Shown piece by piece: positions 17,204 through 22,346 of a stretch of DNA of 24,000 nt. The stretch lies in assembly GCA_030019475.1 (NCBI GenBank), contig JASEER010000010.1:1-24000 (forward strand), given 5' to 3'. The position numbers and the translations under genes are program-made. This DNA is from Thermoanaerobacterales bacterium. GTDB taxonomy: Bacteria; Bacillota; Desulfotomaculia; Desulfotomaculales; JASEER01. The notes below the pieces were generated by a model. The model had not been told where the DNA came from. It ran no database searches and was given only the letters and a program-made list of their open reading frames with translations. Numbering within the stretch: position 1 is the stretch's first letter; each line of letters begins with the position of its first letter.

Positions 17204-17224
17204 CGCCGGCGGTCCACCGTCGCC

Positions 17225-17261
17225 AAAAGCGGCCCCCGAGGAGAAGGGGGGTCGCTTTTTT
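17225..17261 (+). terminator. Rho-independent terminator of leuS
   Basis: GCGGCCCCC (17229-17237) pairs with GGGGGTCGC (17247-17255), one G:U, 9-nt loop. It is flanked by AAAA (17225-17228) and TTTTTT (17256-17261). Confidence 0.85.
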
Positions 17262-17379
17262 GCGCATTCAGGGTGAAGAATCATCGTGAAAAGGATAGTA
17301 ATCCGGACTATGGTGAAGGCAGTTGCAGGAATACGCAAAATAACGCTCGAATTGGCCCATCATCACTACGTTGGGCCGT

Positions 17380-17408
17380 TTGACATCATTAGGGGGTATT
17401 GTTAGTTT
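17380..17408 (+). promoter_or_regulatory. Candidate sigmaA promoter of the first usp gene
   Basis: TTGACA (17380-17385), 17 nt, TAGTTT (17403-17408). Predicted TSS near 17415. Confidence 0.4.
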
Positions 17409-17420
17409 GAGGGTAAGCAA

Positions 17421-17436
17421 TGTGATCACAATCACA
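17421..17436. promoter_or_regulatory. CRP/FNR-type palindrome, site S1
   Basis: TGTGATCACAATCACA is a perfect TGTGA-N6-TCACA, 31 nt upstream of ATG 17467 and about +6 to +21 relative to the predicted promoter. Followed by AGAG, as is S2. Confidence 0.55.
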
Positions 17437-17466
17437 AGAGGCGGTTCTTTGAGGAGAGTGGATGGT

Positions 17467-17880
17467 ATGCGCATCCTGGTGGCGGTTGACGGTTCGGAAC
17501 AGGGTTATGCGGCCTTGCGCTATGGGGTCCGGCTGGCAAAAAGGGGTACCCCGGCCGTGTTGGACGTGTTGATTGTCGCCCTCCCCGTCCTTCAAGCGCA
17601 ACACCTCGACGAGGAGGACGAGAGCGTGGGCCTGGAGTTGCCCCGGATCCGCCAGACGGTGGAAACGATCCTGGCCGCTGAGGGCGTGGAACCCCACATC
17701 CTTGAGAGGCGGAGCGTCGATCCCGCGGAAACGATCTGCCGTACGGCGCGTGACGGGGGTTTCGACGATGTCGTTATGGGACGCTGGGGCCGCTCGGCGG
17801 AAAGGGCCGCAGGCCGTTACCTGGGCAGCGTGGCGTACCAGGTCTTGCAGACCTGCCCCTGTCCGGTGACGGTGGTCTAA
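17467..17880 (+). CDS. Universal stress protein (UspA family)
   Basis: MRILVAVDGSEQG start and the Usp ATP-binding-type block VVMGRWGRSAERAAGRYLGSVAYQV. GAGGAG RBS at 17451-17456, 10 nt before ATG 17467. The ORF-track start 17371 adds 32 non-Usp codons. Confidence 0.85.
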   Translation: MRILVAVDGSEQGYAALRYGVRLAKRGTPAVLDVLIVALPVLQAQHLDEEDESVGLELPRIRQTVETILAAEGVEPHILERRSVDPAETICRTARDGGFDDVVMGRWGRSAERAAGRYLGSVAYQVLQTCPCPVTVV

Positions 17881-17913
17881 GGACCTGCCCCGGCCGCCTG
17901 TGCTGCCCGGCCA

Positions 17914-17929
17914 AGTGATTGTGCTCACA
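17914..17929. promoter_or_regulatory. CRP/FNR-type palindrome, site S2
   Basis: AGTGATTGTGCTCACA (GTGA-N6-TCAC core, 9/10 to TGTGA-N6-TCACA), followed by AGAG as in S1. It overlaps the spacer/-35 position of a possible -10 TAAACT (17934-17939). Confidence 0.5.
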
Positions 17930-17986
17930 AGAGTAAACTTTAGGGGAGAGAAACTCGTGACAGGACCCGGATAAGCGGCCTGGCAG

Positions 17987-18022
17987 TCCCCCTCCGTGGA
18001 GACAATCAGGCCTGGAGGGGGA
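17987..18022 (+). promoter_or_regulatory. RNA hairpin sequestering the Shine-Dalgarno sequence of the small ORF
   Basis: TCCCCCTCC (17987-17995) is the exact reverse complement of GGAGGGGGA (18014-18022), with an 18-nt loop. The 3' arm is the only RBS for ATG 18032. An alternative pairing, GGCCTG (17977-17982) with CAGGCC (18007-18012), is also possible. Confidence 0.6.
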
Positions 18023-18031
18023 TCGAATTCA

Positions 18032-18136
18032 ATGCTTGACGGCGCAGCTATCCTGACATTGGCCCTGGTCACACTCGCCGTGATCGGACTGGGCGCCTCG
18101 GTAGACAGGGCGCAAGAAAGGAACGGCGACAAATAA
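18032..18136 (+). CDS. Unannotated 34-aa single-TM peptide (MLDGAAILTLALVTLAVIGLGASVDRAQERNGDK)
   Basis: ATG lies 10 nt after GGAGGGGG. About 70 percent GC at third codon positions (23 of 33 codons counted by hand), like real genes here. A hydrophobic core is followed by a charged tail. It ends 23 nt before the second usp gene. It is below the ORF-track length cutoff. Confidence 0.45.
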   Translation: MLDGAAILTLALVTLAVIGLGASVDRAQERNGDK

Positions 18137-18159
18137 GTACCGGAAGGGGCTGGATCACC

Positions 18160-18588
18160 ATGCGGAAAGTTCTGGTTGGGCTTGACCGGTCGGAATACGC
18201 GCTGCGCGCCGCCACTCTCGCGGCGGAACTCGCCAGGGCGATTCCCGGCCTGGAGGTGACCGCGGTAATGGTGGTCCGGCCATTACCCGAGGGATTGTAT
18301 CGCGAGGAGCAGGACCTGGCGGCAAACAGCGGCGGCTACGACGCGCAGCGCATCATCCGGCGGGCCAAGGAGATCTTCGCCGAGCACGGAGTTGAAGCCG
18401 CTTTTGACAGCATCAGCGGTAGCGACCCCGGGCTTGAACTCTGCCACTACGCCGCCGACAGGGGTTACGACCATATCATCGTCGGCAAGAAGGGACGCGC
18501 CTCCTCCGCCGGCAACGGCCTGGCCCTCGGCAGCGTCGCCTACAAAGTCCTGCACCTGGCTCCTTGCGCAGTAACGATTGTAAAGTAA
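18160..18588 (+). CDS. Universal stress protein (UspA family)
   Basis: MRKVLVGLDRSEYA start and IIVGKKGRASSAGNGLALGSVAYKVLHLAPCAVTIV Usp block. GGAAGGGG RBS at 18142-18149. Confidence 0.85.
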   Translation: MRKVLVGLDRSEYALRAATLAAELARAIPGLEVTAVMVVRPLPEGLYREEQDLAANSGGYDAQRIIRRAKEIFAEHGVEAAFDSISGSDPGLELCHYAADRGYDHIIVGKKGRASSAGNGLALGSVAYKVLHLAPCAVTIVK

Positions 18589-18658
18589 GAAGACGGGAAG
18601 AAGCCTGCCCCCGGTCGAAGACGAGGGGCAAACATGGCGCGAAAGGAGTGAAAGCAGC

Positions 18659-19225
18659 ATGACCGGATGGGATCCCAGAACCATACCCGGCAGTGATTCT
18701 CCAGTCAGCGACTCTTCCGCCGCCGGGGAACACGCGCAAATCACCGAGGTCCTCAACCTCAGCCGGGCGGCGAAATGTATGCTTCTGGTCGGGGGACAGG
18801 TCGCCACCCTGGCGGTCGTCACCGCCCGCCTGGGCCAGGAGGAAATCAGGGAGCGCCACACTGTGGCCCAAAACGTCGGGCGGCTCTTTCACGCCTGCCG
18901 CCAGGTCCGGATCGCCCTTCCGGAACTGGCCATGCGGACGGACGAACTGTTGCAGGCCTGCTGTGACGCCGTGGAAGGGATCGAGGAGAACACGTATTCG
19001 GCCACCCGGAAGGCCATGCTGCATACCGTCCATAGCGTCTCCCGTCGGGTGCGCGAGCTGGCCGAGACGGTATCCCAAACCTGTTCCGCTCTGACCCCGT
19101 CAACGGAGGCCAGGCGCAACACGGTGGCCGGCATAGTTGCGGCCACGGATTCTCTTGGGCGTGTCGCCGGCCGGATGGAGAAAACAATGGGGTTGGAATC
19201 CACCGGGCTCGCCAACCCTTGCTGA
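18659..19225 (+). CDS. Hypothetical protein, predicted helical, Cys-containing
   Basis: AAGGAG RBS at 18643-18648. Strong GC3 bias in this frame, in contrast to the overlapping track ORFs. I recognise no family. Confidence 0.6.
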   Translation: MTGWDPRTIPGSDSPVSDSSAAGEHAQITEVLNLSRAAKCMLLVGGQVATLAVVTARLGQEEIRERHTVAQNVGRLFHACRQVRIALPELAMRTDELLQACCDAVEGIEENTYSATRKAMLHTVHSVSRRVRELAETVSQTCSALTPSTEARRNTVAGIVAATDSLGRVAGRMEKTMGLESTGLANPC

Positions 19226-19313
19226 TAGAGGGGCGGGCGGACAGCGGCGTGAGCCCCGCCGCACCGCCCGCCGTTCTACCGCTTTTTACTAAACCTACCA
19301 CCCCTCATCTTGG

Positions 19314-19348
19314 GCCGACCCGCTTCCCGGCGGGTGGGCTCCTTTTTT
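19314..19348 (+). terminator. Rho-independent terminator ending the usp2-hypothetical unit
   Basis: GCC-g-ACCCGC (19314-19323) pairs with GCGGGT-g-GGC (19330-19339), 6-nt loop, then TCC and TTTTTT (19343-19348). A second GC-rich hairpin (GGCGGGCGG 19232-19240 / CCGCCCGCC 19264-19272) precedes it. Confidence 0.75.
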
Positions 19349-19358
19349 GCCGCTACGC

Positions 19359-19387
19359 TTGACGGCGGCGCGCGCGCTCCTTATCAT
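19359..19387 (+). promoter_or_regulatory. SigmaA-type promoter placed for a leaderless transcript
   Basis: TTGACG (19359-19364), exactly 17 nt, TATCAT (19382-19387). ATG 19395 begins 7 nt after the -10, which is the expected TSS position. Confidence 0.5.
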
Positions 19388-19394
19388 AGGTGAC

Positions 19395-19694
19395 ATGCAA
19401 ACATTCTTTAATCCCACGCCGCGACAGTTGGAGATCATGGGTTTCCTGGCCGTCATGGGACCGGTGGATGAGGGGGACGTGGCCCTGGCCTTCCGCCTCA
19501 CCCCCGAGGACCTGCGCCGGGTGCCGGCATCCTTCGCCGACAGCCCGGGTGATTTCGTGGCCCGCCTGGAGTTGAAGGCCTTGCTCTCGGCCGGATACGT
19601 TTTCCATGACGGGGTGCTCTGGGGCCTGACCAACGAGGGGCGGAAGATGTGGCTGCTCAAGGGTCGGGCGCGGCCGAAACCCTACGGCTATTAA
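19395..19694 (+). CDS. Small hypothetical protein (99 aa); possible helix-turn-helix, weakly supported
   Basis: Strong GC3 bias. No usable SD (AGGTGA ends 1 nt before the ATG), but there is a promoter at leaderless distance. The ORF-track TTG 19347 lies inside the upstream terminator U-tract. Confidence 0.55.
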   Translation: MQTFFNPTPRQLEIMGFLAVMGPVDEGDVALAFRLTPEDLRRVPASFADSPGDFVARLELKALLSAGYVFHDGVLWGLTNEGRKMWLLKGRARPKPYGY

Positions 19695-19722
19695 CTCTCT
19701 GTTCTTGACGGTGAGCAATAAG

Positions 19723-19753
19723 GAACCCCGTCGATGGACGGGGTTCTTTGTTT
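19723..19753. terminator. Bidirectional intrinsic terminator between convergent genes
   Basis: GAACCCCGTC (19723-19732) and GACGGGGTTC (19737-19746) form a perfect 10-bp stem with a GATG loop. TTTGTTT follows on the + strand and CTTATTG on the - strand. Confidence 0.8.
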
Positions 19754-19789
19754 CAGGAGTGTTTGTTTTACCGGGCCGAGACCCTGGCC

Positions 19790-20500
19790 TCAGGCCTCAT
19801 GCTTGCCGCCGCTATGGGCGACGATGCCCAGACCCTCGAAGGTGTACAGGATGCCGAAGCCGTACCATACGGTGTAGAGAAGGTAGAAGACGAGCAGGAA
19901 CACGGTCAGGCCCATCACCGAATTCAAGGTGGAAACCTTAAGGCCGTAGAAGTTGTAGGTCGGCTCCAGGGCCTTCTCCATAATGGCCTTGGTGTAGAGG
20001 TACCGCGGCCCGGCGCCCCGAGCCGTGAGGTATGCTTTGTTGATCTGCTTCATCGAGTTGTACCAATAGTAGATGACCTCCCGGTCGTTGACGCCGGCGC
20101 CGTACTTGGCGGTGATGGTCTCCGGCTTGTTGTTGAAGACGGCGTCTGCGTCGGCCAGGCAGGCCTTGGCGATGTTCCCGAGGTCGCCGTCGACCTTGAT
20201 GTTCAGGCCCTCGGCCTTTACGTCGGCCCCTGCGGACTGGTAGAGCTTCGCGGTGAGCTGCGCTTCCTCTTCGCTCTTTGTCTTCAGGGTTATCGACACC
20301 GGGTCACCGACCCACTTGTCGGCCTTCTCCATCTGCTCCGGGATGTAGTAGGTCGAGCCCTTCGCCAGGGAGTTGAAGAGGTCGTCTGAAACCTCCAGGC
20401 CGGACCGGCCGTTCCAGACCGGGCCGAGCACTCCGATCAGGACGAGGGCGAAGGTTGCGAGCAAGGTGATCCCAATCCAGAGCTTTCTTTTATCGTTCAT
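19790..20500 (-). CDS. Hypothetical membrane protein: N-terminal TM, ~165-aa soluble domain, C-terminal hydrophobic segment
   Basis: AGGAGGTG RBS 6 nt before the ATG (complement of 20507-20514). MNDKRKLWIGITLLATFALVLIGVLG anchor. C-terminal VMGLTVFLLVFYLLYTVWYGFGILYTF. It starts 27 nt downstream of the TSUP gene stop, so the two are probably co-transcribed. Confidence 0.75.
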   Translation of the reverse strand: MNDKRKLWIGITLLATFALVLIGVLGPVWNGRSGLEVSDDLFNSLAKGSTYYIPEQMEKADKWVGDPVSITLKTKSEEEAQLTAKLYQSAGADVKAEGLNIKVDGDLGNIAKACLADADAVFNNKPETITAKYGAGVNDREVIYYWYNSMKQINKAYLTARGAGPRYLYTKAIMEKALEPTYNFYGLKVSTLNSVMGLTVFLLVFYLLYTVWYGFGILYTFEGLGIVAHSGGKHEA

Positions 20501-20527
20501 TATGGCACCTCCTTCGCGGTTGCGCTG

Positions 20528-21838
20528 CTAATGGCCCACTTCGGCCGCCGGGTGGGTTTCAACGTATGCCTGATGAGCCGCCCGGAACTTGGGCAGGTTC
20601 TTGAAGAATTCGTACATTACCCAGACCGCGAACCCGCCGACCAGGGCAAAGAACAGGACGACACCTATCGTATCAAGGATCTTCCCGGTGGCGTCGGCCA
20701 TCCGGATGTAGCCCAGGCTGGAGAGCTTCGCCGGCAGGGCGCAGGCGCGGTTGACGAAGCCGGCCAGGATGACGGTGGCGTAGAAGCCCTTGATCACGCT
20801 GCCCTTGACTACGCTGGTCACCATGGAGCCCATCTGGATACCGACGAGGGAGCCGAGAAGCAGGCCCATCGCCAGGGTGTAGAAGACGAACCCGTAGATC
20901 GCGTACTGGAAGATCGAGGCGTAGGCCGTGGTGAAGATGATTTGCAGGATGTCGGTGCCGACTGTGGTGAAGGTCGAGACGCCGAGGCCGTAGACGAACA
21001 TCGGGAAGGTCAGGAAGCCGCCGCCGACGCCCATGATCGCCGCGACGAAGCCGACGACAAAACCGCAGACGATCACCGGGTAGATCGGGATGCGCCGACC
21101 GCCGGGAACGACGCCCTGGTCGAACTTGATAGTGGGCGGGACGTTCAACTTCTGCAAGGCCTGCGCGAAACCGGTGGTGGTGCTGACGTCAGCGCCGGTC
21201 TTGTCGGCGCTCTTCAGACGCAGGTAGTCGTACAGAGCGTAGACGCCCAAGAAGCCGAGCATCAGGACGTAGACCGAGTTGATGAAGGCGTCGCTCATGG
21301 CCGGGCTTGATTCGTAAATGGCCCGGTTAAGCTTGCCGCCGAACGTCACGCCGGTGAACGACCCGACCACGAACCAGAAGGCGAGGCCCACATTCACGTT
21401 GCCCAGCTTGCTGTGCAGGACGGTACCCATGATCGCCTTGGCGAAGATGTGGAACTGGTCGGTGCCTACGGCCATAATCCCCCTGACGCCGGCGCTCATC
21501 AGGGCCGGCGTCAGGATGAATCCGCCGCCGGCGCCGATGCAGCCGGTGATCAGGCCGGCGCAAAGGCCGATGAACAGGGACATGAGGAAGGCCGAGGTGT
21601 TTACGAACTGCGGCATGTAGGCCTTGGAACCACCGATCGCGTCGGGCAGGGCCGCAAAGCCCAGCTGCACTCCCAGGGCGATGATCAGCGGCGCCAGCGC
21701 GATGAGCAGCCATTTCCGTCGCCTGGTAAGGATAACCCTGCTGGTTTCGATTTCCCACTTTGCCTGGGCCATCTGGGCGGCCATCAGGAAGTCATATGTC
21801 TGACGGCTGCCGGAGGCCACTTTCCTGAAGATACTCAC
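20528..21838 (-). CDS. TauE/SafE (TSUP) family anion permease, long two-repeat form
   Basis: Two TauE repeats with GCIGAGGGFILTPALM and IMGVGGGFLTFPMFVYGL. Polytopic. I prefer the GTG at 21838 (AAGGGGGTG RBS, 5-nt spacing) over the ORF-track TTG at 21877, which has no RBS. Confidence 0.88.
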   Translation of the reverse strand: MSIFRKVASGSRQTYDFLMAAQMAQAKWEIETSRVILTRRRKWLLIALAPLIIALGVQLGFAALPDAIGGSKAYMPQFVNTSAFLMSLFIGLCAGLITGCIGAGGGFILTPALMSAGVRGIMAVGTDQFHIFAKAIMGTVLHSKLGNVNVGLAFWFVVGSFTGVTFGGKLNRAIYESSPAMSDAFINSVYVLMLGFLGVYALYDYLRLKSADKTGADVSTTTGFAQALQKLNVPPTIKFDQGVVPGGRRIPIYPVIVCGFVVGFVAAIMGVGGGFLTFPMFVYGLGVSTFTTVGTDILQIIFTTAYASIFQYAIYGFVFYTLAMGLLLGSLVGIQMGSMVTSVVKGSVIKGFYATVILAGFVNRACALPAKLSSLGYIRMADATGKILDTIGVVLFFALVGGFAVWVMYEFFKNLPKFRAAHQAYVETHPAAEVGH

Positions 21839-21963
21839 GTTCGCACCCCCTTGATGGAGTAAGAGCTGGTTAGTCAAACGCCTAACGTATGAGGCCGAGG
21901 AGTGTAGTGATGATTTTTCTCGCGCTCACCCCCTTTCAGGGTTGGTATTCGTGGCAATTGGCC

Positions 21964-22001
21964 AAACAAAAAGGCCGAAACATCTTGCGATGCTCCGGCC
22001 T
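21964..22001 (-). terminator. Strong intrinsic terminator inside the 5' region of the TSUP operon (attenuator or small RNA end)
   Basis: The minus-strand RNA reads AGGCCGGAGCATC-GCAA-GATGTTTCGGCCT: a 13-bp stem, a GNRA tetraloop, then UUUUGUUU. Two stem positions are G:U on the minus strand but A:C mismatches on the plus strand, so the structure is strand-specific. Confidence 0.7.
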
Positions 22002-22030
22002 ATCGTTGTTCGATTCGGCGGAAAACCTAA

Positions 22031-22046
22031 AGTGACAAATTTCACA
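22031..22046. promoter_or_regulatory. CRP/FNR-type palindrome, site S3
   Basis: AGTGACAAATTTCACA (GTGA-N6-TCAC core). It starts 11 nt downstream (minus-strand sense) of a possible -10 TAAGAG (22063-22058), the same geometry as S1. Confidence 0.5.
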
Positions 22047-22089
22047 TTCACAGTCGCCTCTTACCCCAGCCGACTGATAAAGGACCAAC

Positions 22090-22105
22090 TGTGAACGGCT
22101 TCACT
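22090..22105. promoter_or_regulatory. CRP/FNR-type palindrome, site S4
   Basis: TGTGAACGGCTTCACT (GTGA-N6-TCAC core), centred 59 bp from S3 and roughly 45 bp upstream of the predicted minus-strand TSS. Confidence 0.5.
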
Positions 22106-22330
22106 ATGCTCTTGTTACCTTAAGGATAGTGACGTTACCGAATGAAGTCAAGAGCATTTTTCTCTACTTTGTTAGAATTTTGGATGTCAATATCTGAACA
22201 GCCGAAATTCCTAGACTGTCCGTTTTCCGACACTCCGGCAGGTATCGAGGCCCGTCGGCAACAGGATATGGCGAGGCGATGGCAGGTGAAACCGTGTCTT
22301 GAAAGGGACGGCCCCGGGGACAACACCGAT

Positions 22331-22346
22331 TGGCACCGGACTTGCT
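22331..22346 (+). promoter_or_regulatory. Sigma-54 (-24/-12) promoter of the CBS-histidine kinase operon
   Basis: TGGCAC-cggac-TTGCT matches TGGCAC-N5-TTGCW exactly, 54 nt upstream of ATG 22400. It is the only TGGCAC in the window followed by TTGC at the correct spacing. The downstream kinase is NtrB-like. Confidence 0.7.

Follow-up and report, generated by a model that had tools for sequence, protein, structure and literature searches.

The NADH/NAD+-sensing repressor Rex of Staphylococcus aureus, Streptomyces coelicolor, Bacillus subtilis and Clostridia binds an 18-bp dyad, TTGTGAA-N4-TTCACAA, in which GTGA and TCAC are invariant and for which the consensus TTGTGAAW4TTCACAA has been published (PMC2883068, PMC6391272). 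Positions 4 and 5 are critical, bound sites often deviate at positions 1 and 7, and binding persists where there are three mismatches (Pagels et al., PMC2883068), and a TTGTTAA/TTAACAA variant is listed for Thermoanaerobacterium (PMC5886521). In Desulfovibrio vulgaris Hildenborough, Rex represses sat through two inverted repeats, as related in PMC7531388, which cites Christensen 2015. The core TGTGA-N6-TCACA is also that of Escherichia coli CRP sites and of HcpR1, a CRP/FNR protein of sulfate reducers; HcpR1 of Desulfovibrio desulfuricans binds exactly this core, and Rex and HcpR1 sites have been noted to be identical (PMC5701242). Here, we analyze a 24,000-nucleotide stretch of the Thermoanaerobacterales bacterium assembly GCA_030019475.1 (contig JASEER010000010.1, positions 1 to 24,000; hereafter the window), which contains four copies of the core GTGA-N6-TCAC, numbered S1 to S4, beside two universal stress protein genes (usp1 and usp2) and a TSUP/TauE-family permease gene. 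Judging from the sequences, S1 to S4 and a fifth copy past the window end are candidate operators of one homodimeric repressor, which we believe, with somewhat better than even confidence, to be Rex.

The locus resembles the described Rex systems in its dyad and in the TTAACAA variant found in relatives; if the promoters are rightly predicted, the sites would also co-localize with promoters, with repression as the expected effect. It differs from known operators in that the window sites, known here from sequence alone, are degenerate (two to four mismatches) and include two G+C-rich spacers, and from known regulons in its targets, which are Usp proteins, a TSUP permease with a 236-amino-acid (aa) partner and a small DUF2292-like protein. 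A full-text literature search found no paper linking Rex to universal stress proteins. As in D. vulgaris, two operators precede one gene, here that of a candidate sulfur-anion transporter that adjoins aprBA in relatives, but the phylum and the target gene are different and none of the related loci showed a site ahead of aprBA. Compared with HcpR1 and CRP, the core is identical, whereas the flanks and the positions relative to promoters misfit an activator and no member of that family is encoded nearby. We here describe what is probably a new target set for a well-known regulator, and the family label given to the dyads in an original prediction made from the window alone changes from CRP/FNR to, most probably, Rex.

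Candidate operators in the window and in related clusters

The dyads are non-random. A pattern search of the window returned exactly four core matches (17422-17435, 17915-17928, 22032-22045 and 22091-22104), which agrees in count, coordinates and 16-mers with the original prediction, and it found no coding-region copies that a scan by eye could have missed. Dinucleotide shuffling gives a mean of 0.24 matches, with 0 of 100 shuffles reaching four, and a Poisson model with independent, identically distributed bases gives P(>=4) = 1.8e-4 (lambda 0.27). No extra copy was found in the 24 kb at two or fewer mismatches to TGTGA-N6-TCACA. One-mismatch variants of the core number eight (12 matches minus the 4 exact ones, 7 of the 8 inside annotated genes) where about six are expected; this is background, so it is only the exact dyad that is enriched. 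All four sites lie outside coding sequence, as had been claimed and as the deposited gene calls and Pfam checks agree, in a window of which approximately 13% is non-coding (estimated from the deposited gene calls and the list of open reading frames, ORFs). S1 lies between leuS and usp1, S2 between usp1 and a 34-aa ORF followed by usp2, and S3 and S4, 59 bp apart from centre to centre, in the 561-bp divergent spacer between the TSUP gene on the minus strand and a CBS-HisKA operon on the plus strand. The extension reported as common to S1 and S2 is indeed found in both (TCACAAGAG). A recent duplication of the S1 and S2 regions was considered and rejected, the alignment being only approximately 1.8 standard deviations above shuffles, which is not significant.

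The sites fit the Rex consensus. Read as Rex-type 18-mers with two 7-nt half-sites, an N4 spacer and 14 specified positions, they have two (S4), three (S1) or four (S2 and S3) mismatches, with GTGA and TCAC intact in all. These mismatches are confined to positions 1, 2 and 7, with positions 3 to 6 kept on both halves; the published tolerance (PMC2883068) covers positions 1 and 7, not position 2. Sites of relatives have one to three mismatches. Pooling 21 sites (42 halves) from a list partly picked by similarity to the Rex consensus gives TTGTGAA, with counts from position 1 to 7 of T 28/42, T 30/42, G 42/42, T 40/42, G 34/42, A 38/42 and A 22/42, and a subset chosen by the core only still has the outermost T in 26 of 40 (hand tally). 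The extended consensus of the lineage is TTGTGAA-N4-TT(C/A)ACAA, the TAACAA halves of relatives matching the TTGTTAA/TTAACAA variant of Thermoanaerobacterium (PMC5886521).

Position and target genes are conserved across relatives. Loci were fetched around homologues of the window permease and given L-numbers (L168, Desulforudis sp.; L169, Desulfofundulus salinus); close homologues, at 60-83% identity, occur in Desulfotomaculia-type Firmicutes and in other phyla. Clusters of the Firmicute type keep the TSUP gene with its 236-aa partner, a CBS-HisKA-receiver(-Alph_Pro_TM) unit, a sigma-54 activator gene and a DUF2292-like gene of 63-65 aa, to which a usp-usp pair is added in the closest relatives. 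Dyads with the same core precede orthologous genes in eight clusters (L086, L087, L088, L122, L124, L147, L168 and L169; examples in Table 1). Conservation upstream of orthologous usp and TSUP genes had been put forward as a check, and this recurrence bears out the idea of a genuine cis-element common to the usp genes and the TSUP operon. As a control, the remaining 47 metagenomic TSUP loci were scanned, and a site at three or fewer mismatches within 900 nt upstream was seen in none or one of them. Core matches are non-coding in 20 of 25 cases in the seven clusters counted, after four sites scored as coding by a crude ORF mask (spurious long ORFs in high-GC DNA) had been reassigned by annotation. 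The fifth exact copy, tGGTGAAAGTATTCACCa (GGTGAATACTTTCACC; L082 3477-3492), which has 2 mismatches in 14 to the Rex consensus, belongs to the same genome. It stands approximately 3 kb beyond the window, where a 64-aa DUF2292-like gene and the sigma-54 activator gene diverge, and is part of the leader of the former. Two coding copies (L082 3937-3952 and 5976-5991) occupy the same codon position of two receiver domains, where they encode the peptide PVIMIT, and show a route by which the motif can originate in coding DNA. In the Desulforudis-type relatives L086, L087 and L168 the whole cluster, usp-usp pair included, has aprBA and hdr/qmo-like genes as neighbours, while the window genome has it after leuS instead. 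The position beside aprBA suggests a role in dissimilatory sulfur-anion uptake or sensing; no dyads were found before aprBA in the related loci.

The placement of the sites looks operator-like, as originally proposed for S1 to S3: apart from S2, they lie on or just downstream of predicted sigma-70-type promoters. The S1 18-mer begins 11 nt past the predicted -10 of usp1 and lies 31 nt ahead of the start codon; the distance from its centre to the ATG is 38.5 nt and takes in the Shine-Dalgarno sequence. S2, which follows the usp1 stop codon at 33 nt and precedes the 34-aa ORF and usp2, may be a roadblock within a usp1-small ORF-usp2 transcript. A 5-codon ORF (VTGPG*) with a good ribosome-binding site follows S2 at window 17957-17974. 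At the TSUP gene S4 had been placed upstream of the promoter and S3 on it. The order is the reverse, with both sites downstream of the predicted start and S4 nearest to it (S4 at approximately +11 to +28 and S3 at +70 to +87, minus strand), followed by a strong terminator hairpin with a U-run (22001-21962) and the permease gene. L087 has the same TSUP promoter hexamers and spacing as the window and L168 has TTGACT-17-TATGCT or TATTCT; the orthologous permease leaders of both, in L168 those of two paralogous operons, contain a pair of GTGAA-type sites at a spacing of 59-68 bp and, like the window, the terminator module. In L124 a dyad abuts the -10 and in L147 a dyad overlaps it.

Rex as the regulator, repression as its effect and NADH as its signal are what we infer from these features. 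Rex is a repressor with promoter-co-localized operators, which fits the geometry predicted here. At a low NADH/NAD+ ratio, the Rex dimer would occupy the operators and block initiation or early elongation of usp1, of the small-ORF/usp2 unit and of the TSUP-236-aa operon with its two operators. A rise in NADH, for example when the electron acceptor is short, would release the repressor and allow expression. The TSUP operon would have a second, independent checkpoint in the conserved hairpin-terminator of the same leader.

Table 1 Features of the window and dyads of related loci (window positions unless a locus is named; promoters are predicted).
Feature	Position or locus	Strand	Remarks
S1 candidate operator ATGTGATCACAATCACAA	17420..17437	.	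3 mismatches to TTGTGAAnnnnTTCACAA, positions 1, 7, 7'
S2 candidate operator AAGTGATTGTGCTCACAA	17913..17930	.	4 mismatches, positions 1, 2, 7, 7'
S3 candidate operator AAGTGACAAATTTCACAT	22030..22047	.	4 mismatches, positions 1, 2, 7, 1'
S4 candidate operator CTGTGAACGGCTTCACTA	22089..22106	.	2 mismatches
Dyad TTGTGAAATATTTCACCA	L124 and L147		before TSUP gene
Dyad TAGTGAAACATTTCACAA	L169 (Desulfofundulus salinus)		before TSUP gene
Dyad AAGTGAATATTGTAACAA	L087		before TSUP gene
Dyad AAGTGAATCTTATCACAA	L168		before TSUP gene
Dyad TTGTGATATATATCACAA	L124		directly after -10 of small gene
Dyad TTGTTACATTATTCACAA	L147		overlapping a -10
Dyad AAGTGAATAATGTAACAA	L086		before usp-usp
Predicted sigma-70-type usp1 promoter	17380..17408	+	TTGACA (17380-17385), 17-nt spacer, TGt-TAGTTT (17403-17408); weak -10, read from sequence
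Predicted sigma-70-type TSUP leader promoter	22123..22151	-	TTGACT-17-TATCCT (22151-22123)
Hairpin GCCGAAUCGAACAACGAUAGGCC, invariant, fused to 13-bp intrinsic terminator and U-run	21954..22024	-	TSUP leader; 67.4 bits with covariance model R1
Candidate enhancer TGTCAATATCTGAACA	22185..22200	+	approximately 135 bp upstream of the -24/-12 promoter; outside GTGA regulon
Sigma-54 promoter TGGCACcggacTTGCT of CBS-HisKA-receiver-Alph_Pro_TM operon	22331..22346	+	perfect -24/-12, only 0-mismatch hit in window; equivalents in L086, L087
usp1, universal stress protein, 137 aa	17467..17880	+	Pfam PF00582, E = 1.2e-23
Hydrophobic small ORF, 34 aa	18032..18136	+	called as gene on Logan contig; no family match
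usp2, universal stress protein, 142 aa	18160..18588	+	Pfam PF00582, E = 9.4e-22
236-aa membrane protein, constant TSUP partner	19790..20500	-	no Pfam family
TSUP/TauE-family permease, 436 aa	20528..21838	-	GTG start 21838; Pfam PF01925, E = 6.4e-36

Assignment of the regulator

Several observations weigh against Rex. S1, S2 and S3 do not have A at position 7, and S2 and S4 have G+C-rich central spacers where S. aureus Rex shows a preference for A/T (PMC2883068). L124 and L147 each have one Rex-like site centred near -51, which is unusual for a repressor. All promoters used here are predictions from sequence, no convincing one was seen next to S2, and the partial selection of the pooled sites by their similarity to Rex favours that consensus. 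In addition, the leaders of several relatives carry a GTGA-N12-TCAC spacing and an extra GTAGTGAC motif, which a simple Rex model leaves unexplained, and several also show tandem T(C/A)AC-AA-TCAC halves. The motif recurs as GTAGTGAC(A)A beside dyads at the approximate positions 8178-8190 in L086, 14690-14710 in L087, 16680 in L088, 7655 in L124, 3820 in L147 and 7840 in L169 and in the window at 22126-22133; in L124 and L147 it is inside the promoter spacer, and in D. salinus it forms a TCACTAC-N5-GTAGTGA palindrome. It may be an extra half-site or the site of a second factor. Finally, tblastn with the B. subtilis Rex and E. coli CRP sequences against all 170 loci found no rex in the approximately 30 kb searched around the window or in the related Firmicute loci, Rex matches being confined to unrelated lineages (L022, L023 and L132/133), and no CRP match in any of the loci. 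The window likewise has no cNMP or HTH_Crp domain by Pfam, so that the suggestion of one dimeric regulator encoded outside it is supported.

The core itself does not discriminate. It is a CRP-type 5-N6-5 dyad, which is why the original prediction spoke of CRP/FNR, and that part of the description stands, but the same dyad is common to Rex. S1 (aaTGTGATcacaATCACAag) fits the E. coli CRP consensus, TGTGAT/ATCACA, as well as it fits Rex, and many CRP/FNR paralogues are common in anaerobic Firmicutes. A CRP/FNR-family regulator resembling HcpR1, whose identical core is a further point against Rex, could bind these sites and for the most part repress, or could activate from promoters that we have mis-predicted. 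We consider this unlikely on grounds of flanks, positions and gene content. The pooled flanks read TTGTGAA...TTCACAA, not aaaTGTGA...TCACAttt. S1 stands too close to the usp1 ATG for activation from -41.5 or -61.5, S4 and S3 follow a promoter that three genomes have in common, and the dyads of L124 and L147 touch the -10. The positions are hence incompatible with CRP/FNR-type activation of class I or II, while such a protein could act as a repressor. No CRP homologue and no cNMP or HTH_Crp domain was found in the window, its 6.5-kb extension or nine related clusters. A lineage-specific dimeric repressor of this cluster, neither Rex nor CRP/FNR, that reads GTGA half-sites in several arrangements would account for the close tracking of the gene cluster by the motif and for the extra GTGA half-sites, the GTGA-N12-TCAC spacings and the recurrent GTAGTGAC(A)A beside dyads or in promoter spacers of relatives. 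A small helix-turn-helix protein (HTH_Tnp_1/HTH_23, 117 aa) is even encoded inside the operon in L087 and L168. We nevertheless think such a factor quite improbable, given that the window genome has no such gene in the 30 kb examined and that the best sites of low-GC relatives have one mismatch to the 14 specified Rex positions, an unlikely coincidence.

Two further readings place the function of the palindromes elsewhere, and even jointly they take up only a small part of the probability. One is that the palindromes act as RNA, as hairpins or long-range helices in 5' leaders, for instance as part of an attenuator upstream of the TSUP gene. Transcription probably covers all window sites, and the fold of the leader 22118-21955 on the minus strand is unusually stable (z = -4.4), the right half of S4 pairing with TTCACAGT beside S3. 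However, any two inverted half-sites can pair, so nothing independent is learned from this helix. Conservation of the half-sites is one of sequence with no compensatory change, the left half of the dyad would stay untranscribed where it overlaps (L147) or abuts (L124) the -10, S1 and S2 have no terminator or structured element downstream, and Rfam gave no match. An RNA hairpin was rejected as the main explanation because of the missing covariation and these -10 contacts, and we regard the RNA reading as very improbable. The other is that S3 and S4 are enhancers (upstream activating sequences) of the neighbouring sigma-54 activator, which would drive the CBS-HisKA operon. A perfect -24/-12 promoter does precede the operon, and just past the window end an NtrC-type activator is encoded, but S4 and S3 are approximately 230-300 bp upstream of that promoter, outside the usual range of approximately 80-200 bp, and neither S1 nor S2 has a sigma-54 promoter downstream. 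A different repeat, TGTCAATAT..ACA (22185-22200), is kept at the usual distance of approximately 135 bp in the window, L086, L087 and L168. Its window copy is the likelier enhancer for the NtrC-type activator, so S3 and S4 need no enhancer explanation; we rejected it for them on distance and on the presence of this repeat, and give it hardly any credence.

What had been called a stress-responsive regulon is better described as one that answers to redox state (NADH/NAD+) and is linked with a sulfur-anion transport cluster. Should the dyads prove to be Rex operators, two universal stress proteins and a highly conserved TSUP permease would join the Rex redox regulon in Desulforudis-like subsurface sulfate reducers. 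The permease is of a transporter family that has been put forward as the sulfate importer in some sulfate reducers (PMC5840216). Electron-acceptor uptake would then be tied to the NADH/NAD+ ratio, as in the Rex control of sat in Desulfovibrio, and an experimental handle would be gained on a transporter family of unassigned substrate. As a general caution, TGTGA-N6-TCACA alone cannot assign a regulator family.

A hairpin-terminator module in the TSUP leader

The TSUP leader contains a 22-nt module, GCC-GA-AUCG-AACAA-CGAU-A-GGC, in which a fixed 4-bp hairpin (AUCG/CGAU, loop AACAA) is stacked on an intrinsic terminator whose upper stem covaries. In an alignment of 21 distinct copies from seven gene clusters with G+C contents of 42-63%, 20 columns are invariant. 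Searching with a covariance model at E < 1e-4 brings the number to 26 distinct copies, five of them outside the training set, and further L168 copies matched the sequence pattern only. Besides the window, the module is present at L082 3009-3081 and L086 8269-9884 and in L087, L088, L121, L122, L124, L147 and L168, where copies stand in leaders, between genes (small gene, CBS and TSUP) and after the 236-aa gene, sometimes in tandem. No above-chance copy was found elsewhere in the window or in approximately 150 kb around leuS of seven related Firmicute genomes, and Rfam 15 gave no match at the gathering threshold or at E <= 5-10 in the relevant regions of the window, L086 and L088.

These features make the module a candidate for a new protein- or ligand-dependent, riboswitch-like attenuator. 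We tentatively suggest, with more doubt than conviction, that the TSUP leader ends in a previously undescribed cis-regulatory RNA, of which at least eight Desulfotomaculia-type clusters have repeated copies in front of, behind and between their TSUP, CBS and DUF2292-like genes. In the ANTAR-controlled eut locus and in the RAT/BglG antiterminators a short conserved hairpin likewise abuts an intrinsic terminator and is repeated within one cluster. In contrast to these systems, the module has another sequence and shape (AUCG-AACAA-CGAU with a GCC/GGC clamp), its hairpin shares no more than the lowest three to four pairs with the terminator, the cluster encodes no ANTAR or PRD protein and the module belongs to no Rfam family. 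That its sequence stays strictly the same in genomes with 42-63% G+C suggests a specific RNA-binding factor or ligand still to be discovered. If the module is a riboswitch or the target of an RNA-binding antiterminator, two inputs, redox state through Rex and a second signal, would control a candidate dissimilatory sulfate/sulfite transporter, and the module may prove a more original result than the dyads.

Genes of the window

The first part of the window carries, in order, a spo0B-like gene, obg, proB, a HIT-family gene, proA, a nadD-like gene, an RRM-domain gene, rsfS, a tRNA gene and leuS. These are followed by usp1, the 34-aa ORF, usp2, two genes with no family match, the minus-strand 236-aa and TSUP/TauE genes and the plus-strand CBS-HisKA-receiver-Alph_Pro_TM operon. 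Pfam assigned no family to the 236-aa, 188-aa, 115-aa and 68-aa proteins and gave no more than a sub-threshold DUF2292 match for the 64-aa protein.

The deposited TSUP call (418 aa, start 21784) is probably 18 codons short (window 21785-21838, minus strand). The GTG at 21838 has a ribosome-binding site, AAGGGGGT, and the resulting N-terminus, MSIFRKVASGSRQ..., aligns with homologues of 436-437 aa. In Kiritimatiellales, Victivallales and Deltaproteobacteria the TSUP protein is approximately 660-690 aa long (for example P0035, P0047, P0076 and P0092) and looks like a fusion with the 236-aa partner; such a fusion in other phyla would support a functional complex of the two proteins.

The window LeuRS is 73-74% identical to that of Desulforudis metagenome-assembled genomes. 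In a comparison of leuS synteny across 80 genomes, the usp block downstream of leuS is absent in the nearest of these (L002 and L003), so these two loci gave no conservation test. A homologue of the 115-aa ORF (19347-19694) stands directly 3' of leuS in L002 (2688-3027) and L003 (12485-12776), in the place taken in the window by 17204-19346, and the usp1-small ORF-usp2-orf188 block is therefore a genome-specific insertion or rearrangement.

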